This document shows positions 2,371 to 50,663 of a stretch of 57,725 nucleotides of DNA, one piece after another (position 1 is the stretch's first letter; the number at the start of each line of letters is the position of its first letter). Position numbers and translations under genes: made by a program. Under the pieces are notes generated by a model. That model was given only the letters and a program-made list of their open reading frames with translations, searched no databases and was not told where the DNA came from. This DNA comes from a virus (taxonomy: Duplodnaviria > Caudoviricetes), in IMG/VR virus record IMGVR_UViG_3300044703_000050, positions 1-57,725 of that record; one strand, 5' to 3'.

Positions 2371-4481
2371 GCTAAGTCTTCCTCGACCCGCCGCAGCATA
2401 CCGCCTTCGTCGGCGACCAGGCCGGACTCGATCATTTCCTTAATAGCGCCGTACCAGGGACCGGCCTTTGCACTCTGCGCGCTGACGTTGAGCGCTTCGG
2501 CCAATTGCTGGCGCGTCATGGGCCGCTTGAGGGCGTCATAGTGGCGTTGCGATTTTTGCAAGAGGTCGTAGCGAGCGGCACGCAGCGTCTCCGCAGTGTC
2601 CGCGCGCGGCGGCGCAAGGATCTCGAATAGCGCACAGCCCTTGGGCGTGATGGCGAATTGACGATCGCCTTCGATCAGCGCCCATTCGCGTAGCGCCTTA
2701 ATGTTGCCGTACCACGGACCGGCCTTTGCGCTCGCCGGCGTTTTCCCGGCCAGCAGCGCCCATTGTTCATTGGTGAGGCGATGGCGCCGGTGGTCGGCGA
2801 GCACGCGCAACATCGTCATGGCCGCGGTGCCGACGGTAGCCGCTATCCGATCGCGCCACAGTGCGAACAGCTCGACTTCGTCTTGTGGATTTTGAGGCAC
2901 GTGCGTGGAGGAGGCGGTGCCCGCCAGTGTCGCGCGAAAGCCGCCGGCGGCTTCTTCGATGAAGCCGTTCGCCAGCAGCGTATTGCGCGAGCGATACCAT
3001 GGCCCCGCCTTCGCGCTTTCTGGCGATTTACCGACGGCAACCGCCCACAGGGCCAATGGCAATGGCTGCGGATACGACCGCACCAGCGCATCGAGCATGG
3101 CCATGTCGGCGCGCGACGGTGCGTTAGCCTGAGAATATTTATCGGATGACTCCTCAGCCGGCGGCCGGGCTTTGCTTGTCGCCGCCGGCACACCCTGATC
3201 TTCGGCGGCGCCTGTGGCTTCGCTGCGCCGCGAGGCACGCTCCCAGCGGCCCTCGCGGGCGACCTCCGCGAGGTGCTCCGCAAGATCGGTCACCTTTCGA
3301 GCGTGATCGCGAACATCGAGTGCCGCGGCATTCCAGTATTCGCCGGCCTGGCGCAGGCCGGCTGTCATCCCGCGCTCGTAGCCACGCTGTTCGGCTTCTC
3401 CGGTTTCTGTTTTCAGCCGCGTGTTCTCGGCTAGCAGTGCGTCCGCTTCTGCCCTGTCCACTTCATCCTCCTGCTGCTTGGGTAGATGCTGCGGCTTCGC
3501 CGGCGGCACCGTTTCGTCAATCGACATGGCGCCGGTCGCGATGTCGCGCGCGTCGTCGGCTGCCATCCACGCGGGCTGCACGTAGACCTTGGCCACGGTT
3601 TGCCCGAAGCACGCGAAGAACTGGCCGCGCTCGAGGGTCGCGACGTCTGCGGCGCTGGGGCGCTTGATGCCGGCCGGGATGTTGGAGAGGTTGCGCTTGA
3701 GCTCGTTGGCTTCCCGCTGCACGCCGATGATCCAGACGGTGCAGCCGCGCAAGATGGTCTTGTCGACGCCGGCCATGTCCTGGCTATCGACCCAGATGTG
3801 GTTGCCGATGCCAGCGCCCTTGCGAACGAGCGTGATGGCCGACACCTTGACCGGCGAGCCCTTGCCCTCGGGCACGAACTCCCAGGCCTCCGGGATCACG
3901 ACCGTGGTGTTGCGGCAACGCTCATTCACCCAATCGAGCGCCGACTGGATGAACAGCATCTGCATCGGCGTGGCGAAGGGGCTCACGTCCATGACGTTGA
4001 TGCCGGTGGCCAGGTCGAGGCGATCGGCGAGATCGGCGCGCTCGATCTCCGGCACGATCAAGTCGAGATAGGCGTCAAGCTGGGTGTAGACGCCTTCGTT
4101 GATACCTCTGGCGGTGGCGAGCGCCTCACGAACGCGTTCCTGCACTTCCGCCAGCGTTTCCGTGTTTCGGCAGATCTTCATGATCCAGGGGCGCAGGAAT
4201 TTGTTCTTCTCCTGCAGGGTGGCATCGAGGATCGAGGTGACGAACTGCCAATCGGCGCGATCGCGGAAGTAGGGCTTCACCCGGCGGCCGGCGGCGAACG
4301 AGCCTTCGCCGCGCTTGGTGATGAAGGTCAGCGCGGTGGCGCCCGACCTGGTCGCCAGCGCCTCAAGCGTCGTGGTCTTGCCCGACTCCTGGGTCTGGCC
4401 TGTGACCGCCAGGTGGCGCAGCGGGATGGCGATCGGCGCGCCGGTGCCGAGCTCGTAGCCGAGGTGGACGGAGGCTTTCAT
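2367..4481 (-). CDS. HerA/DUF87-like P-loop ATPase with three C-terminal repeats
   Basis: HLAVTGQTQESGKTT Walker A; VVIPEAW at the Walker B position; LVRKGAGIG arginine-finger-like segment; SAKAGPWY occurs three times in the C-terminus. Confidence 0.8.
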   Translation of the reverse strand: MKASVHLGYELGTGAPIAIPLRHLAVTGQTQESGKTTTLEALATRSGATALTFITKRGEGSFAAGRRVKPYFRDRADWQFVTSILDATLQEKNKFLRPWIMKICRNTETLAEVQERVREALATARGINEGVYTQLDAYLDLIVPEIERADLADRLDLATGINVMDVSPFATPMQMLFIQSALDWVNERCRNTTVVIPEAWEFVPEGKGSPVKVSAITLVRKGAGIGNHIWVDSQDMAGVDKTILRGCTVWIIGVQREANELKRNLSNIPAGIKRPSAADVATLERGQFFACFGQTVAKVYVQPAWMAADDARDIATGAMSIDETVPPAKPQHLPKQQEDEVDRAEADALLAENTRLKTETGEAEQRGYERGMTAGLRQAGEYWNAAALDVRDHARKVTDLAEHLAEVAREGRWERASRRSEATGAAEDQGVPAATSKARPPAEESSDKYSQANAPSRADMAMLDALVRSYPQPLPLALWAVAVGKSPESAKAGPWYRSRNTLLANGFIEEAAGGFRATLAGTASSTHVPQNPQDEVELFALWRDRIAATVGTAAMTMLRVLADHRRHRLTNEQWALLAGKTPASAKAGPWYGNIKALREWALIEGDRQFAITPKGCALFEILAPPRADTAETLRAARYDLLQKSQRHYDALKRPMTRQQLAEALNVSAQSAKAGPWYGAIKEMIESGLVADEGGMLRRVEEDLA

Positions 4482-4765
4482 AGAACGCGCTCTCCGCGGA
4501 TTGCCGCGGCGGCGATGGCAGCGGCGCCGGTCGCTGCGGCGCCATTGTCTCTCTCGTCTAGCTCGTGCGCCTCATCGCAGAGCTTTGCGCAACGGGTGCG
4601 CTCGTATGTCGCCGCTTTAGCTTCAACGTTTTGGAGGCGTTCGATCTCCTGTAGAGCCTCCATGTAGCTCAAAACGAGCCTTTGGCTGTCGACCGCGATT
4701 ACGCCGGCCGACGTGAAACAGCATCCGGCCGTTTCTAGCTTGGCCTTAAGTTCGTCGGGGCTCAT
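4478..4765 (-). CDS. Hypothetical protein
   Basis: MSPDELKAKLE... start is ATGA-coupled; ERTRCAKLCD...AAAIR is a motif common in phage early proteins. Confidence 0.65.
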   Translation of the reverse strand: MSPDELKAKLETAGCCFTSAGVIAVDSQRLVLSYMEALQEIERLQNVEAKAATYERTRCAKLCDEAHELDERDNGAAATGAAAIAAAAIRGERVL

Positions 4766-4929
4766 CGGCTGCCGCCGATCAGTTCGCGATACTCGTAACA
4801 GAGCACGTCGTCGCCCCAGCACTCCCGCCGCTCGACGGCGCGGAGCCAGCGGAGGTAGCCATCGATGCGCACCGGGTGCCAGGCGAACCAGGGGTGCCAG
4901 CCGCTGTGGTCCTGCAGAGGGGGGCTCAT
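4762..4929 (-). CDS. Small Trp-rich phage protein (55 aa, below ORF-track cutoff)
   Basis: Manual translation: MSPPLQDHSGWHPWFAWHPVRIDGYLRWLRAVERRECWGDDVLCYEYRELIGGSR; ATGA overlap with the next gene. Confidence 0.7.
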   Translation of the reverse strand: MSPPLQDHSGWHPWFAWHPVRIDGYLRWLRAVERRECWGDDVLCYEYRELIGGSR

Positions 4930-5089: not shown

Positions 5090-5314
5090 GCGATTCGACT
5101 CCGGTCATGGGGAGAGTCGAATCCTGGGCCTTAACGCCCCTCTTGCCCCCGCCAGAGTCGAATCGTAAGCTGTTTTGGCTGCAAAACCCCCGGCCTGTCA
5201 CGCCGGAGGTCGCGGGTTCGAGTCCCGTCGCTCCCGCCAGTTTTTGAACTGATTCAATCATTTAGAAGTTTCCTGTTTTGCGATTCGACTCTCGCCGTCG
5301 AGGCGATTCGACTC
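5090..5314. repeat. Integrase arm-type sites: five copies of (GC)GATTCGACTC flanking the att core
   Basis: Direct copies at 5090-5101, 5280-5291 and 5303-5314; inverted copies at 5114-5123 and 5155-5165. Confidence 0.8.
5190..5239 (+). other. attP core: 3' two-thirds of tRNA-Asp(GTC)
   Basis: CCGGC-CTGTCAC-GCCGG-AGGTC-GCGGG-TTCGAGT-CCCGT-CGCTCCCGCCA lacks the tRNA 5' end. It sits just downstream of the integrase, between arm repeats. Confidence 0.9.
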
Positions 5315-12735: not shown

Positions 12736-12810
12736 TGGAGCGGGGAGCGGGAGTTGCACCCGCAACCTTCCGGCTGGATGCCGGATGCTCTGGATTTGAG
12801 CTATCCCCGC
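12736..12810 (-). tRNA. Atypical tRNA-Gly(TCC)
   Basis: Full cloverleaf: GCGGGGA-TA-GCTC-AAATCCA-GAGC-A-TCCGG-CATCCAG-CCGGA-AGGTT-GCGGG-TGCAACT-CCCGC-TCCCCGC-T-CCA; U73 discriminator. Confidence 0.85.
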
Positions 12811-43117: not shown

Positions 43118-44185
43118 ATGAAACTTCTGTCCCGCGCCCTCTTCGGCGCGCTCGCGCTCCTGTGCGCGCCGCTGCCCGCCTCTGCCACCGGCATCCTGCC
43201 GCTGTCGGGCCAACAGCAGTTCGACAATGCGACCGCGGGCTTCCTCAACGCCGGGTGTATGTGGATCTTCGCCACCGGCACGACGACGCCGCGCACGGTC
43301 TATACTGACTTCGCGCTGACCGTCCCGCATCCATCGCCGATCGTCCTCAATTCGGTCGGTCGCGTGCCGCCGATCTACGGCGCCGACGGTGCGGTGCGGG
43401 TGCGGGTGCGCTCAAAGAATACCGACGGCAGCGCCGGCTGCCTCGTCAGCGGGGTCCTGCAGTTCGACCAGGACAACGTCGCGCTCGTCACCGCGGCCGC
43501 CAGCGGCAGCTCTTTGCCGATCCCCGACGCCACCCAGATCTGGGGCACCGGCGACATCAAGGTCCGCTACGACGACCAGCCGGTCGAAGGTTATGTCCGG
43601 CTCAACGGCCGCACCATCGGGTCGGCGACGTCGGGCGCGGCCGAGCGCGCCAATGCCGACGCCGAGGCGCTGTTCAAGTTCCTGTGGGGTTTTTCCAATG
43701 TCTCGGTGGTGACCGGCAAAGGCGCGAGCGCCGCCGCCGACTGGGCGGCGAACAAGCAGCTTACGCTCCCCGACATGGCGGGACGCCTGCTCGGTGCGCG
43801 CGATGATCTCGGCAACGGCGCCGCCGGGCGCATCACCGCCGCCACGGTGACAGGGCCGACCGCCGTCGGCGCCGCCGGCGGCACCGAGAAGGGCACGATT
43901 GCGCAGGCCAACCTGCCGAACGTCAACTTCCCGGTGTCCGGCATCACGCTTTCGGATACCCGCACCTGGGGCTGGTCGAAGCCCGGGTCCAACGCCGGCG
44001 TCACCGGCGCCACCGACGCCATCCTGCAGCCGAGCGGCACCAACACGACGATCACCGACACCGTGACGGTGACCGGCGGCGAGCTGGCGGTCGCGACGCA
44101 AGGCACCGCCGCCTCCGGCGGCGCCGGCACGGCGTTCAACACCATCGCGCCCGTGATGCTGTTCACCACCTACATCAAGCTGTGA
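43118..44185 (+). CDS. Tail fibre / tail-collar protein with signal-peptide-like N-terminus
   Basis: Head-binding-like N domain (FATGTTTP...PIVLNSVGR), collar motif GDIK...GYVRLNG...LPDMAGR, C-terminal YIKL. Confidence 0.8.
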   Translation: MKLLSRALFGALALLCAPLPASATGILPLSGQQQFDNATAGFLNAGCMWIFATGTTTPRTVYTDFALTVPHPSPIVLNSVGRVPPIYGADGAVRVRVRSKNTDGSAGCLVSGVLQFDQDNVALVTAAASGSSLPIPDATQIWGTGDIKVRYDDQPVEGYVRLNGRTIGSATSGAAERANADAEALFKFLWGFSNVSVVTGKGASAAADWAANKQLTLPDMAGRLLGARDDLGNGAAGRITAATVTGPTAVGAAGGTEKGTIAQANLPNVNFPVSGITLSDTRTWGWSKPGSNAGVTGATDAILQPSGTNTTITDTVTVTGGELAVATQGTAASGGAGTAFNTIAPVMLFTTYIKL

Positions 44186-44192
44186 GGCGTCA

Positions 44193-44594
44193 ATGTTCCG
44201 AGGCGCTTTCCCAGCGATAAGCAACCGCCAAAGCTTCATCGATGCCGTCGAACTCTATGACGACGAGGACGGCACGCTGGTCGACCTGACGGGCTGCATC
44301 ATTCAGGTCGAAATCAGGCCGGCCGGACTGTCGTGGCCGAGCGACAGCTATTGGTCCGCCGGATGGGGATGGGGTTACGGCCTCTTCGGCTCGACGCGCC
44401 TGCTCGCATCGACCGCGGATGGCTCAATCATCATTCCCGACGTCGGCACCTTCATCTTCACGTTCACGCCGGCACAGATCGCCTCGTTATGCCCGGGTCT
44501 TTACGAGCTCGCAGCGAACATCTCGCGAGACGATGAAACCGTTCAACTCATCCTTGGAACCATGCCGGTTCTCGACGGAGTCGTGCCGCAATGA
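44193..44594 (+). CDS. BppU-like Ig-fold tail adaptor
   Basis: DGTLVDLTGC...GSIII...FTFTPAQIASLCPGLY. Confidence 0.65.
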   Translation: MFRGAFPAISNRQSFIDAVELYDDEDGTLVDLTGCIIQVEIRPAGLSWPSDSYWSAGWGWGYGLFGSTRLLASTADGSIIIPDVGTFIFTFTPAQIASLCPGLYELAANISRDDETVQLILGTMPVLDGVVPQ

Positions 44595-45997
44595 AATTAC
44601 AAATGACGCCGCGTTTCCCCGCAATCGTGCAGGCCGCCAACGGCGACAAGGTGGTGCGCGCGAACGGCGCCTACACGTTCGGGCCGGCTTACGACCAACT
44701 CACCGCGCTCGGCAGCCTGACCGATCTGCCGAACACGGTGTTTCGTTCCTACAATCTAGCGACCGGGCTCTATCGCAGCCTCACGGCGCAGCAGCTCGCT
44801 TCGGCAATCGGGTTGCCAATCACCTCGGGCGTGCGATCCCGCCTCCTCGCCGATATCAACTTCTACGTCCGCCCTGACGGCAGCGACGCCAATACCGGCC
44901 TCGCCAACACATCTGGGGGCGCCTTTCGGACAATCCAAAAGGCGATTGATACTGCGTTCGCATCACTCGACTGGAGCGGGTTCAACGTCTACGTCAATGT
45001 AGCTGCCGGGACCTTTACGGACCCCGTGATCGTCACCGGCAAGGCCGTCGGCCAATACGGCGGCGGCACGCTTATGATCATCGGTGATCAGACCACGCCT
45101 GCAAATTGCATCGTCAGCACGACGGCAGCAGATGCGTTTACAATTACCAAGGGCGCCGCGGTCACAATCGCAGGGTTCAAGGTCCAGACAGCGATATCCG
45201 GCAATTGCGTCAAGTGCCTTTTCAAAAGCCGGCTGACGCTCGGCGCGATGGAATATGGAGCGTGCGCCGGTTACCACATCCAGACGGCTTACCAGTCATT
45301 CACGGAGACAATTGCATCATATAAGATATCAGGCGCCGCCGCCGCCCACTTTTACACCGTGCTGAGTTCTGTTCTTGAGGTGGTTGGGATCACCATCACG
45401 CTGACTGGGACGCCTTCGTTTTCGACCGCGTTTTTGGTCGGGGCGGTGAACTCATACTCTCATCTCGTTAGCGTGACGTTCAGCGGGTCAGCGACGGGCC
45501 AGCGCTTCTACATGTACATGAACGCCGTCTACAGCGACGGAAGTACACACGGATACGACTACCTTCCCGGTAATGCCGATGGTGTGACGTTTGGCGGGGC
45601 GGTATACAACAACGATTACGAATACGTCGGCTGGCAGTCGTGGTCTCCGACCATTGCCACGGTCAGCGGAACGGCCGCAACCGCTTCCGGCCAATATAAA
45701 ACACATGGTCGAGATTTTGAGTTTTCAATCACGGCAGTGGTGGGTTCAATTGGAGCATCGCCCAGCATTGCAATACCAATGCCTACCGTGAACAATTCTT
45801 ACAATGCTGCGGGTATTGGAAGCCCTTCGGGGAACAACGCGTTTAGAGCGATGGACATCACATCTGCTGATGTCTTGATGACCGCGTTTGCCCTCGAGAG
45901 CAATCCGTTCATCTTTCTCAAGCCACTCGCGGGCGCATCTTTTGCAACGCATGCCTACGTGATCAGCGGGAAGATGCCGCTCAACGCCTATCCATGA
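44591..45997 (+). CDS. Tail fibre / tailspike (receptor-binding) protein
   Basis: FYVRPDGSDANTGL...AFRTIQKAID start of a beta-helix; visibly lower-GC 3' half. Confidence 0.8.
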   Translation: MKLQMTPRFPAIVQAANGDKVVRANGAYTFGPAYDQLTALGSLTDLPNTVFRSYNLATGLYRSLTAQQLASAIGLPITSGVRSRLLADINFYVRPDGSDANTGLANTSGGAFRTIQKAIDTAFASLDWSGFNVYVNVAAGTFTDPVIVTGKAVGQYGGGTLMIIGDQTTPANCIVSTTAADAFTITKGAAVTIAGFKVQTAISGNCVKCLFKSRLTLGAMEYGACAGYHIQTAYQSFTETIASYKISGAAAAHFYTVLSSVLEVVGITITLTGTPSFSTAFLVGAVNSYSHLVSVTFSGSATGQRFYMYMNAVYSDGSTHGYDYLPGNADGVTFGGAVYNNDYEYVGWQSWSPTIATVSGTAATASGQYKTHGRDFEFSITAVVGSIGASPSIAIPMPTVNNSYNAAGIGSPSGNNAFRAMDITSADVLMTAFALESNPFIFLKPLAGASFATHAYVISGKMPLNAYP

Positions 45998-46422
45998 TGC
46001 GCGCGCCTGTCCGGCAAGCGGGCCTCGTGACGCGCGCACCAATCTTCGCCGCCATCGCGGCGCTATCCACCATTGCGGCCGCGAGCGCGCGCGACGCCGG
46101 CCAGTGGAGCGACCAACCGCCCGCCGTGCGCGAATGGTTCCGTGGGCTGATGCAGCCGGACCAACCACATGTATCCTGCTGCGGCGAATCCGACGCCTAT
46201 GAGGCGGACAGCTTCGAGGTCGAGGGCGACCACTACGTCGCGATCATCACCGACGGCAGCGGCGATCCCGAGCACGGCAAGCGCGAGATCCCGAACGGCA
46301 CGCGAATTACGGTGCCAAACCACAAGATGAAATGGGACGCCGGCAATCCGACCGGGCACGGCGTGATCTTCATCGGGCCGCAGGGCCAGGTCTTCTGCTT
46401 CGTCACTCCAGGCGGCGTCTGA
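45994..46422 (+). CDS. Secreted Cys-containing phage protein
   Basis: Signal peptide; SCCGESD; NPTGHGVIF; VFCFVTPGG. Confidence 0.75.
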   Translation: MMRAPVRQAGLVTRAPIFAAIAALSTIAAASARDAGQWSDQPPAVREWFRGLMQPDQPHVSCCGESDAYEADSFEVEGDHYVAIITDGSGDPEHGKREIPNGTRITVPNHKMKWDAGNPTGHGVIFIGPQGQVFCFVTPGGV

Positions 46423-46449
46423 GCTCGCCCTTTCCAAGGAAAAATCCCT

Positions 46450-47301
46450 GTGAAGCATCCCTTCGGCGCACTCGCGCCCGAATACGATTCGCTATTGCGC
46501 ACGGTCACGGTGCGGCCGGAGCGCGCGAAGGCAATCGACCAGGTGGCGCGCAAGCTGCTGTCCTATCGCGGACGCTACCAGCAGGTCGCCGACGCCACGC
46601 GCGTGCCGGTGATCGTGCTGGCGACCCTGCACGAGCGCGAATCGAGTGCCGATTTCCGCACCAACCTGGCGCAGGGTGATCCGCTCACGCGGCCGTCGAC
46701 GCACGTCCCGGCCGGGCGGCCGAAACTCAAGCCCGGCATCAGCTTCCCGGTGAGCTGGGAATACGCCGCGGTCGACGCCATCGAATATGACCACCTCAAC
46801 GACGCCTCGGCGCCGTGGTCGATGGTCTATGCCTGCTGGAAGGGCGAGGCCTGGAACGGCTTCGGTCCCCGCAACCACGGCATCCACACCGGCTATCTGT
46901 GGGGCGGCACCCAGCACTACGCGCGCGGCAAGTACGTCGCCGACGGGATCTGGGATGCAAACCACGTCGACACCCAGCTCGGCATCGTGCCGGTGATGTT
47001 GCGCATGGTGGCCCTCGCTCCGGAGCTCGCGCTCGTCGCGGCACCGGCGATCGCCGGTGCCGCTGAAAGTGCGCCGCAATCGGTGCCGGTCGGCGTCGGC
47101 GGCGGTGAGCGCGACGCCGCGTGGATCCAGCGCAGGCTCAACGCACTGGGCCAGGCCCCGCCGCTCCTCGAGGACGGCAGCTACGGCCGCCGCACGCGCG
47201 AGGCGGTGCGCTGGTTCCAGGCGACGCACGGGCTCGGCGCCGACGGCCTCGCCGGGCCGCTCACGGTCGCGGCGCTGGAGCGGGGCGAGGTGGGCGCATG
47301 A
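46450..47301 (+). CDS. Endolysin (lysozyme-family) with C-terminal peptidoglycan-binding domain
   Basis: LHERES, LAQGDP, EAWNGFG, GKYVADG, DTQLG; DGSYGRRTREAVRWFQATHGLGADGLAGPLT. Confidence 0.9.
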   Translation: MKHPFGALAPEYDSLLRTVTVRPERAKAIDQVARKLLSYRGRYQQVADATRVPVIVLATLHERESSADFRTNLAQGDPLTRPSTHVPAGRPKLKPGISFPVSWEYAAVDAIEYDHLNDASAPWSMVYACWKGEAWNGFGPRNHGIHTGYLWGGTQHYARGKYVADGIWDANHVDTQLGIVPVMLRMVALAPELALVAAPAIAGAAESAPQSVPVGVGGGERDAAWIQRRLNALGQAPPLLEDGSYGRRTREAVRWFQATHGLGADGLAGPLTVAALERGEVGA

Positions 47302-48167
47302 CCATGGCGCTGGTCCGCAGCCGCGGCGGCTACTATCTCGATTTTGCGATTGCGCCGACGCTGGTCGCGGTCGCGGCTGCGACCGAGCAGCTTAGCCGCG
47401 GCATAGGCCTTGCGTGGCTTGCCGCCATGCTGGCGGGAGCGCTCGCGTGGACGCTCGCCGAATATCTCATCCACCGCGTTTTCCTGCACCGCCTGTGCCG
47501 TGCGCTGCACGCCGAGCATCATCGCGTGCCGGCGGCCTATGTCGGACCATCGAGCTTCTTCACCGTGGCCGTGGTCGGCGTGCTGCTGGTCCTCCTGGTG
47601 GCGCTCATGGGGCAGACCGTCGGTGGCGGCGCCTGGGCCGGGATCCTGCTCGGCTATTTCTCCTACATCGTCATGCACGACGCGCTGCACCGCCGGCGTA
47701 TTCCGCGCGGCCATTGGCTCCGACCCGCCTTCGACCGCCACATGCTGCATCATCGCGGCATCGAGCGGAATTTCGGGGTGACGACGGCGCTCTGGGACCG
47801 CATGTTCGGTACCGCCGGCACGGTCGCGCCGGCGGAAGTGGAGCCCGGCGAGATGGACTTTCCCTTCACCACGGACGGCTGCTCGGGCGGCATGACGGCG
47901 CTGTGGCGCGTCGTCTACCGCCGTGATCCGCCCTGGAACGACCTGTGCGTCGAGCACGACAAGGCCTACTGGGCCGGCGGCTCGGTTGCCGATCGGAGAC
48001 AAGCGGACCGCGTCCTGATGGCCGGCGTCACGCTCAATGGTCATCCGGTCTTTGCCTTCCTCATGTGGTGTGCCGTGCGTATCGGCGGGCATCCCTTGCT
48101 GCCGTTGCCCTGGCGCTGGAGCTACGGCTGGACCTATCCGAAAAATTACGCCTCGCACCAAGGGTGA
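47298..48167 (+). CDS. Fatty-acid hydroxylase / sterol desaturase fused to a DGCS...HD (PLA2-like) domain
   Basis: EYLIHRVFLH, HAEHH, HDALH, HMLHH, NFGVTTALWDRMFGT; then FTTDGCSGG...CVEHDKAYWAGG. Confidence 0.8.
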   Translation: MTMALVRSRGGYYLDFAIAPTLVAVAAATEQLSRGIGLAWLAAMLAGALAWTLAEYLIHRVFLHRLCRALHAEHHRVPAAYVGPSSFFTVAVVGVLLVLLVALMGQTVGGGAWAGILLGYFSYIVMHDALHRRRIPRGHWLRPAFDRHMLHHRGIERNFGVTTALWDRMFGTAGTVAPAEVEPGEMDFPFTTDGCSGGMTALWRVVYRRDPPWNDLCVEHDKAYWAGGSVADRRQADRVLMAGVTLNGHPVFAFLMWCAVRIGGHPLLPLPWRWSYGWTYPKNYASHQG

Positions 48168-48171
48168 GCTG

Positions 48172-48417
48172 ATGAACAAGCGCATTGATGGGCCCGTCAT
48201 CATCTCGGTGATCGTGGTGACCGGGTTTTTCGCCATTCTGGTGCTCTGGCTCGTCACCAAGGCCTCCTCGGTACCGCCGAGTGAAGGGCTCTCCATCATG
48301 CTCGGTGCCATGGCGTCGGCGTTCACCACCGTGGTCGGCTACTGGATGGGCTCGTCGGCCGGCTCGAAGAACAAGGACGCGGCGATCGCGGCGATGGTCG
48401 AGACCAAGGCGCCATGA
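48172..48417 (+). CDS. Holin-like two-TM protein
   Basis: Two hydrophobic helices; VVGYWMGSSAGSKNKD. Confidence 0.75.
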   Translation: MNKRIDGPVIISVIVVTGFFAILVLWLVTKASSVPPSEGLSIMLGAMASAFTTVVGYWMGSSAGSKNKDAAIAAMVETKAP

Positions 48418-48974
48418 TCGCGCTCCTGACCACGCTCGGCCTCGGCGCGCTGGCGCCGCTCCTGGCCGCCGCCGGCGGCTGGCTGACCGTGATCGGCGGC
48501 CCGGTGGCCGGCGTCGCCGGGCTGCTCTCACGCCGGGTGAGCGGCCCGACCCTCAAGCTCATCCTGGTCGTGGTCGCGGTCCTCGCCGTCATCATCGCGG
48601 TGGTGGGGTTCACGGCGCACTACGAACACCTCAAGGACAAGGCCGCCGACTTCCTGGTGCTGCAGCCGAAGATCGCCGCGCTCGAGCGCGATCTCGGCTG
48701 CGATGGCCGGGACGAGAACGAGCGCGAGCTGTTCACCTGCATCCCGGCGCGCGACCGCGATGCCGCGGAGGCAAAAGCTGCGGCGCTGCGCAAGCTGCAG
48801 GGGGACATGGCGCTGGCGCTGGAATTCGAGCGGCGGCGCGCCGACCAGAACGCTGCCGAGCTCGCCGATGCCAACGCGGCGATCGAGCGCTCGAGCGCTG
48901 CCGACGACGGACCGCTGCCGAAGGTGATGCGCGACAACTGGGCGCGCGAGCGGGCGCGTCGGGGGCTGAAATGA
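48414..48974 (+). CDS. i-spanin (Rz-like)
   Basis: N-terminal TM segments plus coiled coil; lysis-cassette position. Confidence 0.65.
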   Translation: MIALLTTLGLGALAPLLAAAGGWLTVIGGPVAGVAGLLSRRVSGPTLKLILVVVAVLAVIIAVVGFTAHYEHLKDKAADFLVLQPKIAALERDLGCDGRDENERELFTCIPARDRDAAEAKAAALRKLQGDMALALEFERRRADQNAAELADANAAIERSSAADDGPLPKVMRDNWARERARRGLK

Positions 48975-49264
48975 TCCGCACCATGGTGGCGATCGCGCTC
49001 ATGTCCGTTCTCGCCGGCTGCGCCTTGGCGTCGAAGCCGGCGCCGATCGGCGTCTCGATCGACGGCCCGAAATTCCCGCGCTCGCAGTTCGACTGCGGTA
49101 GCCGCCCGCTGCCGCCGGATCCCGCGACCGCCACCGGCAAGACCGCGGCGCTCCATGAAAACCGGCTCGGCAGCTGGGGTGAGGGCTGCCAGGGCAGGCT
49201 GCAGAGCACCGGATTGGCGCTCGAGGCGGCCGGACAGCTGATCGACGGAGGCAAGGTGCCATGA
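48971..49264 (+). CDS. o-spanin (Rz1-like lipoprotein)
   Basis: LAGC lipobox, Pro-rich, two further Cys. Confidence 0.7.
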   Translation: MIRTMVAIALMSVLAGCALASKPAPIGVSIDGPKFPRSQFDCGSRPLPPDPATATGKTAALHENRLGSWGEGCQGRLQSTGLALEAAGQLIDGGKVP

Positions 49265-49569
49265 CCGACCCATCGCTCAACCTCGATACCATCCTCAAGC
49301 TGATCGAGATCGTCAGCGTGATCGGCGGGGGCGGCGTGGTGGCATTCCGGCTGGGGCGCGTGACGACGCAATTCGAGGCCGGCATGTCGCAGCAGGCCAA
49401 GGAGATCGCCGAGCTCAAGGGCGACGTGAAGGCCGTCAACAAGCTGATCACCGACATGGCGCTGCAGAGCCAGCGCATGGATGCCCTCGACAAGCGCCTC
49501 GACGAGCTCGCCCACGGCCGCGGGTTCATCGACGTCGCCGTGAAGCGTCCAGTTCGCGCGGCAAAGTAA
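49261..49569 (+). CDS. Single-TM coiled-coil protein
   Basis: TM helix followed by a coiled coil; HGRGF C-terminus. Confidence 0.7.
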   Translation: MTDPSLNLDTILKLIEIVSVIGGGGVVAFRLGRVTTQFEAGMSQQAKEIAELKGDVKAVNKLITDMALQSQRMDALDKRLDELAHGRGFIDVAVKRPVRAAK

Positions 49570-49859
49570 ACTGCTGGCGCCGACGTCCATGACGCTCCTC
49601 CCGGACGGGAGGAATTCCTAGAGCGAGTCGCTCGATCGATTCCCGGCGCACGCGCCTGTTAGTCACAGGTCTTCGAGCGTGGCGGAGATCAAGGATATTC
49701 TGCGGCAGCGGCCCGCGGCTCGTTAAGGTTGCGGGAGTGGAATGTGCCACAGAACCAGGAGTGCCGTCACAGTGAAAGGTGAAGCGATGCTCCACTACGT
49801 CCGAACGGAAGGCAGCACCAACAACTCCCTGTCATCATTGATTTCTATGCTGGCGCTGT

Positions 49860-50663
49860 TCACGCGAGAAACTCCACGTTCGGCGCCGCGCCCTCGACAG
49901 CGGTCAAAGAAGAAAACTGCTTCACGGGTGGCAGGTGCAATAGCTTCATAAGCTTGACCATCGCCGCGCGATACGTGGCGGGGCTTCTATGTTCCCCGGC
50001 CTTCACCCAAGCCTTGATCTGATCGGCGGTGCGCGCGAAGCCTGGAAGCGCCTTGTAGCCCCACATTTTTGTTTCTTGGGCGAGCCGAGCAGCGGCATCG
50101 TCACCGTGCTGGATGGAAATGTAATTATTTAGATACTCGAATGCCCACCAGCTCCAGGGCCACCATTCGAGGTCTCTAATGATTTCCTTTCCCTTGTACG
50201 ACTTGAATTCTTTCTTATAGTTCGCGACCACGCTCCGCTTATTTTGAAACTGGTTTAGGGGCAGGCCTGCGCGAAGAAAGTCGTTCACGAAAATGTCGTG
50301 CTGGACGACGTTGACGAGCTTCCCGAGAACATTGTCGATATAGGGGATATTCGCCTGGTGGGCGGATGACAATTCGAGACTGTTGATTAGCGCGAAGCCG
50401 CGAATGGGAAGGCTTAGGTGCAACAGTTCATGCATCGCCGCAGCTTCTACCCGATCGCTGCCCATGTTCAGCTTGATGGTTGCGCCCTGGAAACGCGCCG
50501 ACGCCCCGCCATCATCGATGCTAAATTTGCTGACACCGTCGAGATTGACGAAGCCCTCCACAAAAAACATCGGCCCGTAAAAGGCGCGGACCTCGCCCAA
50601 TAATTCTTGACCGGCTGGGAAGTCGGCAAAGATTTCGTCGAGGTTGGGAATCGGGTCGGGCAC
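49860..50663 (-). CDS. Moron-like protein with HExxH motif (putative zinc metallopeptidase)
   Basis: AAMHELLHL; visibly lower GC; GGAGG before GTG. Confidence 0.7.
   Translation of the reverse strand: MPDPIPNLDEIFADFPAGQELLGEVRAFYGPMFFVEGFVNLDGVSKFSIDDGGASARFQGATIKLNMGSDRVEAAAMHELLHLSLPIRGFALINSLELSSAHQANIPYIDNVLGKLVNVVQHDIFVNDFLRAGLPLNQFQNKRSVVANYKKEFKSYKGKEIIRDLEWWPWSWWAFEYLNNYISIQHGDDAAARLAQETKMWGYKALPGFARTADQIKAWVKAGEHRSPATYRAAMVKLMKLLHLPPVKQFSSLTAVEGAAPNVEFLA

Follow-up and report, generated by a model that had tools for sequence, protein, structure and literature searches.

A predicted fatty-acid hydroxylase fused to a phospholipase A2-like domain in a phage lysis operon, and related hydroxylases beside endolysin genes of other phages

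Lysis of Gram-negative bacteria by phages is explained by holin, endolysin and spanin, and to our knowledge an enzymatic attack on lipids during lysis has been established only for LysB of mycobacteriophages. LysB is a lipid-ester-cleaving accessory enzyme that is encoded beside endolysin and holin and helps to complete lysis; it is an alpha/beta-hydrolase esterase whose target, in the outer layer of mycobacteria, is the mycolyl-arabinogalactan link. In addition, there is an old link between phospholipid hydrolysis and the lysis caused by phage T4. Here, we analysed an open reading frame (ORF) of 289 amino acids (aa) in a complete genome of a soil phage of the Caudoviricetes (IMG/VR record IMGVR_UViG_3300044703_000050; CheckV 100%, 57,725 bp, G+C content 65.8%), the whole of which is referred to below as the window. 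This ORF, whose folds are unrelated to that of LysB, joins a fatty-acid hydroxylase domain to a phospholipase A2 (PLA2)-like domain and lies on the + strand inside a lysis operon.

For the C-terminal domain (C-domain), a described counterpart is TtaP, a DUF1353 protein encoded in the typhoid-toxin islet of Salmonella Typhi. According to its report, part of which was available to us, TtaP is a proven PLA2 with the catalytic residues H70, D71 and D85, its activity needs the distal Asp, and the protein, which is made without a signal peptide, stays associated with the cell and is similar to proteins of prophages (PMC11525133). Its gene lies beside a phage-type muramidase gene, and relatives are common in prophages (PMC11525133). 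The fused ORF also has no signal peptide, and its C-domain is, like the TtaP/DUF1353 proteins, small (about 100 aa) and helical and has the TD-x-x-S loop, the HD-x2-Y motif and the distal Asp in common with them. Unlike these proteins, the C-domain does not match the DUF1353 model and is part of a distinct family marked by two invariant Cys and a W-R-W-x-Y-G-W region; it also differs from TtaP in being fused to a membrane hydroxylase within a true phage lysis operon. The best structural matches to the C-domain are group XIV PLA2s (Tuber borchii, 4aup; Saccharothrix, 8k1w; Sciscionella, 7ygk; PF09056), with which it has the C-x2-HD-x2-Y core and the distal Asp in common, but which are secreted and contain two disulfides according to the same partly available source (PMC11525133).

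The hydroxylase domain, in turn, shares four His boxes and probably also four transmembrane helices with Scs7p/FA2H (4zr1) and with bacterial proteins of the 'sterol desaturase family' (~180–200 aa), whereas it has no cytochrome b5 domain, is carried by a phage and is fused. OlsE of Rhizobium and Agrobacterium is a membrane-lipid hydroxylase of the same di-iron superfamily from a possible host class; in the available part of its report it acts on the ornithine head group, and it serves here as a functional precedent without sequence comparison (PMC12971839). The lipid desaturases of cyanophages are likewise phage-borne, membrane-bound di-iron His-box enzymes that act on host membrane lipids, but they belong to a different Pfam family and have been classed as auxiliary metabolic genes, for which the part of the source at hand reports no link to lysis cassettes (PMC5776448).

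The fused ORF extends in one open frame from ATG 47298 to TGA 48165–48167. Its ATG overlaps the stop codon of the endolysin gene (TGA 47299–47301), and its stop ends 4 nucleotides (nt) before the next gene, which starts at ATG 48172 and encodes a holin-like protein. A longer start in the same frame is available at GTG 47121; ATG 47298 agrees with the N-termini of homologues and has a purine-rich stretch just upstream. No stop codon separates the hydroxylase domain from FTTDGCSGG (residues 190–198) and CVEHDKAY (217–224). The gene is therefore part of a translationally coupled lysis operon composed of genes for the endolysin, the fused protein, the holin-like protein with two transmembrane segments, a protein with transmembrane and coiled-coil parts and a lipoprotein with a lipobox. 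The position of the ORF between endolysin and holin and the two joined domains had been noticed previously from the DNA letters and their translations (the sequence-only reading), and with ORF, coupling, motifs and contig support all checked, that observation as a whole was confirmed.

Because the record is a metagenome assembly and the fusion was met only once in everything searched, we considered whether a frameshift or a chimeric join of two genes could have produced it. However, contig X1 (8088 nt, from the probable source sample) covers positions 46400–48113 with 0 differences, and contig X2 (476 nt, depth 5.2), which comes from a second soil metagenome of another sample and study, covers 47498–47967 with 9 substitutions and 0 gaps, spanning His box 3 to the HD motif across the domain junction. 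The junction at 47810–47855 is thus bridged without indels by contigs of two runs, one of them from a diverged strain, which contradicts a sequencing artefact. The three X2 substitutions that could be seen are all synonymous as judged by reading, while the other six, which are not shown, could include a stop. The fusion is real, and an artefact of assembly or sequencing is very improbable.

The fusion also looks unique among the sequences searched. Among 18 near-length homologues, coverage of the query never exceeded 60%; this set does not include the 'longer' length class, which was not searched. When six-frame translations were searched with hidden Markov models at E ≤ 1e-3, none of 22 C-domain loci contained the hydroxylase and none of 98 other hydroxylase loci contained the C-domain, and only the fused ORF carries both domains among the 289 proteins collected. 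A metagenome contig (L100:426–1526) holds a hydroxylase of the L038/L040 clade that runs stop-free into a transmembrane segment and then into a domain homologous to a secreted 142-aa ORF of the window (45994–46422; phmmer 1.6e-37), which could be a second in-frame hydroxylase fusion or could contain an internal start. This 142-aa ORF sits just upstream of the window endolysin and has the motif CCGE-x-DAY; no Pfam, PHROG or NCBIfam model matched the protein.

The N-terminal part of the fused protein matched FA_hydroxylase (PF04116) over residues 45–172 (47430..47813; 73.6 bits, where the Pfam cut-off is 31 bits; E 2.6e-20). Within this match, the four His boxes noted in the sequence-only reading are all intact: H59-x4-H64 (47472–47489), H71-x2-H74-H75 (47508–47522), H127-x3-H131 (47676–47690) and H148-x2-H151-H152 (47739–47753). 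The best solved relative was yeast fatty-acid 2-hydroxylase Scs7p (E 1.5e-7, residues 45–178), and the Atlas structure gave a TM-score of 0.94 to bacterial 'sterol desaturase family' clusters (~200 aa) and of 0.86 to eukaryotic FA2H, so that the assignment as a fatty-acid hydroxylase holds. Identity to any relative found was 28–48%, and the fused ORF had no NCBIfam match. Hydropathy peaks occur at residues 36–54, 87–105 and 108–126, with a weaker first segment near 14–30. The N-terminal module is most readily taken as a four-helix di-metal hydroxylase of the Scs7p/FA2H type in the inner membrane, with both termini probably in the cytoplasm. Since both His-box loops are Arg-rich and Scs7p provides a precedent, we infer that the metal site and the C-terminus of the hydroxylase face the cytoplasm. 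Ten His residues (H59, H64, H71, H74, H75, H127, H131, H148, H151 and H152) are invariant in all 17 aligned viral sequences, which argues for a working enzyme rather than a mere anchor.

An alignment-based scan identified 18 viral contigs with a stand-alone homologue of the hydroxylase (29–43% identity); in all 16 other viral hydroxylases that were aligned, the protein stops no more than about 10 residues past the FGT motif. In 8 of these 18 loci the hydroxylase directly follows a peptidoglycan-hydrolase gene, namely a PG_binding_1+CHAP endolysin (L026; those of L031 and L037 were judged homologous from sequence), a GH25 protein (L027), a DPBB_1 protein (L029) or an endolysin of the window type (L035, L038 and L040). 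In two more contigs, L024 and L032, an endolysin (GH108 and GH19+PG_binding_1, respectively) is encoded at a distance of up to about 1 kb. Thus, 10 of the 18 viral contigs have the hydroxylase next to or close to an endolysin, the endolysins concerned are of at least five unrelated types, and the gaps between endolysin and hydroxylase, as judged by reading, are 0–40 nt or overlaps. As to whether the same fusion and context exist in other phages, the answer is divided: the fusion was absent from all 120 other loci, while the placement of a hydroxylase next to endolysins recurs. In contig L033, the hydroxylase lies between two small ORFs with lipobox-like N-termini (3702–3962 and 4520–4849), with an ORF of two transmembrane segments upstream, and judging from these features it may be an eleventh lysis-linked locus. 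The sequence-only reading had mentioned neither the recurrence of the hydroxylase alone in other phage lysis cassettes nor the correspondence of ATG 47853 to a stand-alone start, which is described below.

Outside these viral contigs, 80 metagenome and 30 alphaproteobacterial hydroxylase loci contained no neighbour homologous to these endolysins except one DPBB protein on the opposite strand (L044). The 10 longest such loci showed mixed, housekeeping-looking neighbours by eye and gave no clue to the substrate. Hydroxylase matches were found in 31 of 401 alphaproteobacterial genomes, all of them distant (best 1.7e-32), and there were 0 matches in 50,697 records of isolated phages (tblastn, E ≤ 1e-3).

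We also compared the four viral contigs with the closest endolysins (L160–L163, 45–69% identity) and found neither domain within 3.5 kb of them. In L160, whose endolysin is 69% identical, a homologue of the holin-like protein directly follows the endolysin. Because the closest endolysin relatives are without either domain and the L160 cassette passes from endolysin to holin directly, the fused gene is an accessory insert. This agrees with the earlier proposal that the gene is not part of the standard holin-endolysin-spanin scheme. The fused ORF has no features of a holin, an endolysin or a spanin, for which separate genes are present at 46450, 48172, 48414 and 48971.

Such an insert may also serve the host cell instead of its lysis. 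It could be a cargo gene, such as a moron-like, superinfection-exclusion or host-fitness factor, that changes the lipids of the host membrane (ornithine lipids or lipid A precursors being possible targets of hydroxylation) and could thereby alter surface, stress tolerance or phage susceptibility; it would lie in the lysis region only because this region tolerates insertions. In line with such envelope remodelling, four of the checked hydroxylase-bearing records are classed as proviruses, the gene is dispensable in the nearest cassette, and 8 of the 18 viral loci have no recognised lysis gene adjoining the hydroxylase, one of which (L028) adjoins a sliding-clamp-like gene. Moreover, in the sources available in part, OlsE of the same superfamily modifies ornithine lipids in Alphaproteobacteria (PMC12971839), and the membrane lipid desaturases carried by phages have been counted among auxiliary metabolic genes (PMC5776448). 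On the other hand, given the overlap with the endolysin stop codon in the window and the gaps of 0–40 nt elsewhere, there is no space for a separate promoter, and expression together with the late lysis genes is therefore implied. The association across at least five unrelated endolysin types also speaks against remodelling, and a lysogen would be unlikely to gain fitness from a phospholipase that is anchored in its own inner membrane. We consider remodelling to be unlikely.

The C-domain (residues 186–289; 47853..48164) starts at an internal ATG. A scan of 1.84 billion cluster representatives recovered 1257 relatives at E ≤ 1e-3, and the TD-x-CS motif is present in 121 of the best 150. An N-terminal extension is absent from 37 of these 121, hydrophobic in 56 and non-hydrophobic in 28. 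In the Atlas, the nearest clusters consist of hypothetical proteins of ~90 aa and are 69–77% viral, and the C-domain matched phrog_6098 (unknown function, 6.4e-11) and phrog_1158. Nine residues (D193, C195, C217, H220, D221, Y224, G228, D237 and W274) are invariant across 56 aligned family members, and the C-terminal W-R-W-x-Y-G-W region is conserved. Candidate catalytic residues are D193 (47874–47876), H220-D221 (47955–47960) and D237 (48006–48008); H220, D221 and D237 correspond to the catalytic residues of the TtaP class through DUF1353 relatives rather than through the sequence of TtaP itself.

Several comparisons point to the PLA2 superfamily. In hhalign, the C-domain family aligned with a DUF1353 profile at a probability of 92.7% (E 4.3e-7, 75 columns), with the motifs TD-x-(C/A)-S, HD-x2-Y and R-x2-AD in register; the profile was made of eight domains from alphaproteobacterial genomes, 6 of 151 of which carried one. 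The AlphaFold2 model of the C-domain is confident (pLDDT, predicted local distance difference test, 93.1). Three group XIV PLA2 structures head the Foldseek list for PDB, if weakly (E 0.38–1.1, TM-score 0.46–0.49), and group XIV PLA2s also lead in VIA-align, both among 48,161 chains (Z 6.5, next entry 5.7) and in a second list (Z 6.6–6.8, next entry 4.9), with 75–79 residues aligned at 16–22% identity. The BFVD list is dominated by PLA2-named proteins of phages, parvoviruses and poxviruses, none at E 1e-3. At the same time, the DUF1353 model (PF07087) matched neither the C-domain (E ≤ 1) nor anything else in the window, the group XIV model (PF09056) did not match the C-domain protein, and a profile search of the family against PDB sequences returned chance rows only (E ≥ 0.64), without any PLA2. 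The best single-member matches, still sub-threshold, were to PF07087 (E 0.0025) and PF09056 (E 0.003). Because of the hhalign result, the shared motifs, the structure ranking and the precedent of TtaP, we filed the C-domain as a putative member of the PLA2 superfamily and a sister of DUF1353 that belongs to neither Pfam family. In this sense the PLA2-like domain call of the sequence-only reading holds: the alignment with DUF1353, the matching His and Asp residues and the group XIV PLA2s as best, though weak, fold matches all agree with it.

The C-domain may nevertheless share with these enzymes only an ancient fold and motif and have another binding, cleavage or structural role. Every direct match to PLA2 models or structures was sub-threshold, the databases name the relatives 'FAD-binding oxidoreductase' or 'hypothetical', and two conserved Cys are found where the group XIV enzymes have four disulfide-forming Cys (PMC11525133, available in part). 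Against this stand the invariant catalytic set (Asp of the N-terminal loop, His-Asp, Tyr and distal Asp) and the alignment with DUF1353, whose member TtaP needs the distal Asp for activity (PMC11525133). A function other than phospholipase is thus quite unlikely in our view.

Elsewhere, the C-domain is joined to unrelated partners (P0012, P0014, P0142, P0002 and L003:4728–5252), among them a Peptidase_C92 amidase, tyrosine-phosphatase-like domains (Y_phosphatase3) that are preceded by a signal peptide, and a pair of N-terminal domains that are uncharacterised. In L003–L005, the C-domain gene stands among genes that by eye resemble those of nucleotide metabolism. Only 2 of the 50,697 INPHARED records matched, both through the C-domain and both from Aeromonas phages, where the neighbouring genes are unannotated.

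The two domains are connected by a linker (residues 177–185, VAPAEVEPG-E; 47826..47852) that contains GGAG 9 nt upstream of the internal ATG 47853. This ATG is equivalent to the start Met of a stand-alone C-domain homologue (L007, 61% identity) in an alphaproteobacterial metagenome-assembled genome (MAG), and the linker is similar to the C-terminal tail of stand-alone hydroxylases. Because of these features, the fusion may have arisen when the stop codon between two adjacent genes was lost, and a shorter product may be made in addition from ATG 47853. Hence the C-domain could be made also or mainly as a separate protein, or the hydroxylase might chiefly be a membrane anchor. A hydrophobic N-terminal extension, which is common in the C-domain family, would suit the idea of an anchor, and both versions are favoured by the many unrelated partners of the C-domain and by the different domain in frame with the L100 hydroxylase. 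However, a purine-rich stretch such as this GGAG can arise by chance within a coding frame, the frame stays open in the diverged strain represented by X2, and the fully intact His boxes argue against an anchor only. An unfused pair of hydroxylase and PLA2-like genes was found in none of the 120 other loci, and therefore there is no sign of a two-gene ancestor. Two products, or a hydroxylase that only anchors, seem rather improbable, about to the same degree as envelope remodelling.

Since the gene is translationally coupled to lysis genes, both modules have kept their catalytic residues and two lipid-directed activities are fused, we tentatively favour, with slightly less than even confidence, a lipid-directed accessory enzyme of lysis that would act on the inner membrane from its cytoplasmic face. 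The C-terminal module would be a PLA2-superfamily domain of ~100 residues, with a His-Asp pair and a distal Asp, held at the cytoplasmic leaflet by the hydroxylase; from the predicted topology it should lie on the cytoplasmic side of the inner membrane and not at the outer membrane. Late in infection, the hydroxylase would oxidise acyl chains of inner-membrane lipids, and the PLA2-like domain would hydrolyse the acyl esters of phospholipids to lysolipids and free fatty acids. The cytoplasmic membrane might thereby be weakened or dissolved, and lysis by holin, endolysin and spanin be assisted or sharpened. Group XIV PLA2s are Ca2+-dependent, and the PLA2 step could perhaps be held off until holin triggering admits Ca2+.

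A wider version may be proposed, which we regard as unlikely, and a little more so than remodelling. Membrane-bound di-iron lipid hydroxylases would then be recurrent, previously unrecognised accessories in the lysis cassettes of phages and prophages whose hosts are Gram-negative soil bacteria, co-translated with whatever endolysin is present. Here, one of them would have captured a TtaP-like PLA2 to form a two-step 'oxidise and cleave' enzyme that dismantles the cytoplasmic membrane from inside after the holin fires, as a fourth, lipid-directed arm of lysis. The sequence-only reading had seen in the gene a bifunctional lipid-remodelling enzyme co-expressed with the lysis genes that possibly weakens hopanoid-rich or otherwise rigid alphaproteobacterial membranes. 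This reading is partly supported: its domain calls, single frame, lysis operon and accessory status stand, the bifunctional enzyme is a prediction, and the hopanoid idea is without support, as nothing found bears on hopanoids.

Several findings weigh against a role of the fused protein in lysis. An O2- and reductant-dependent hydroxylase would be an odd tool for rapid lysis, and no cytochrome b5 or other electron-donor domain is present in the fused ORF. The lysis region is a common place for cargo genes, which may insert there preferentially and so come to lie beside endolysins. In 8 of the 18 viral loci, moreover, no recognised lysis gene adjoins the hydroxylase. In a quick FastTree phylogeny without support values, the viral hydroxylases fell into several clades and the window copy stood beside a soil-metagenome clade, apart from those viral clades that are linked to lysis. 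Lysis genes are also absent from the vicinity of the other viral C-domain copies. With regard to the phospholipase activity, residues 186–289 had no Pfam match at E ≤ 1 and no NCBIfam match, and scans of 56 single family members against Pfam gave sub-threshold matches only (DUF1353 11, PLA2G12 9, Phospholip_A2_3 7, Phospholip_A2_1 2 and Phospholip_A2_2 1). Foldseek found nothing at E ≤ 1e-3 in PDB or BFVD, so that its PLA2 rows are leads and not proof, and Z values below 8 in VIA-align may mean only a common helical arrangement. The topology raises a further difficulty: the only two Cys that are invariant (C195 and C217) suggest a disulfide, which would fit an exported rather than a cytoplasmic domain, yet the C-domain follows a segment predicted to lie on the cytoplasmic side and no signal peptide precedes it. 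The hydrophobic N-terminal extension of 56 of 121 family members is also in line with an exported domain. Finally, deletion of TtaP caused no envelope phenotype in Salmonella Typhi, according to the available part of that report (PMC11525133).

Lipid-cleaving accessories of lysis, as exemplified by LysB, and phage-borne His-box lipid enzymes, as exemplified by the cyanophage desaturases, are already known. What is new is the presence of stand-alone hydroxylases with ten invariant His beside or near endolysins in more than half of the viral contigs found. Our literature search found no paper that ties such hydroxylases to phage lysis or describes their fusion to a TtaP-like PLA2 domain. The association of a hydroxylase that retains all metal ligands with this variety of endolysins indicates that lipid chemistry may matter for lysis or release in a group of phages. 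If the favoured role in lysis is true, enzymes directed at membrane lipids would be among the means by which some phages burst their hosts. The fusion offers PLA2 as a candidate partner activity and makes the idea of lipid-directed lysis directly testable. In addition, the C-domain relatives form a large unmodelled PLA2-like family, many of whose closest members are viral and which is related to the recently discovered TtaP class. The family is of interest both for finding further phospholipases and for the question, still unsolved, of what TtaP does next to the phage-like muramidase TtsA.

The remaining genes of the operon were also characterized. Six tightly packed genes on the + strand (46450–49569) lie downstream of the genes for terminase (25972), portal (27988), major head protein (32417), head closure (36263) and tail (43118), all on the + strand. 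This layout is that of an endolysin/holin/spanin cassette, in which the holin and spanin roles are predicted from sequence features. The first gene (46450..47301, + strand) encodes an endolysin with a 'lysozyme family protein' N-terminal domain, so named by JGI and represented by 1767 homologues, and a C-terminal PG_binding_1 domain (residues 223–276; Pfam E 1e-14), which is also the domain matched by PHROG endolysin families. For the catalytic fold, the PDB profile search was empty and the AlphaFold2 model was poor (pLDDT 50.8). The N-terminal domain (window 46450–47050; also in L029, L035, L038, L040 and L160–L163) has an invariant R-E together with the motifs A-Q-G-D and N-G-x-G, and no Pfam or PHROG model and no PDB sequence matched it. 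Endolysins of this type alternate in their C-terminus between a PG_binding_1 domain and a transmembrane anchor, the latter being found in the homologues of L035, L038 and L040.

Downstream of the fused ORF, the holin-like gene (48172..48417, + strand) encodes 81 aa with two putative transmembrane segments (hydropathy peaks at 9–27 and 39–57); the protein matched only PHROG families of unknown function. It is followed by a gene for a 186-aa protein with N-terminal transmembrane segments and a charged helical C-terminal part (48414..48974, + strand), which resembles an i-spanin, overlaps both neighbouring genes by ATGA and had no family match in Pfam, PHROG and NCBIfam scans. The next gene (48971..49264, + strand) encodes a putative o-spanin-like lipoprotein of 97 aa, which has the lipobox LAGC and is rich in Pro along one stretch. 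The final coupled gene (49261..49569, + strand) encodes 102 aa with a hydrophobic N-terminal and a coiled-coil-like C-terminal part and matched phrog_1009 (unknown function, E 0.0016). The last three gene joints of the operon are all ATGA overlaps.

Since a spanin-like pair is present, the host is presumably Gram-negative. It may belong to the Alphaproteobacteria, the sole basis for this class being that the closest C-domain homologue (61% identity) is located in an alphaproteobacterial MAG. A blastn search of window 44000–50000 against the isolated phages of INPHARED gave a single match, of 78 nt, in a mycobacteriophage endolysin. The genome also contains genes for tRNA-Asp (GTC; 5160–5235, + strand) and tRNA-Gly (TCC; 12736–12810, - strand). 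At window 48437–48533, many ends are loose and the contig depth, which elsewhere is about 20 (X1) and 5 (X2), rises to 112 and 144, respectively; this segment is an Ala/Gly/Leu-rich, GC-rich stretch of the 186-aa gene that is evidently matched by many unrelated soil-metagenome contigs.

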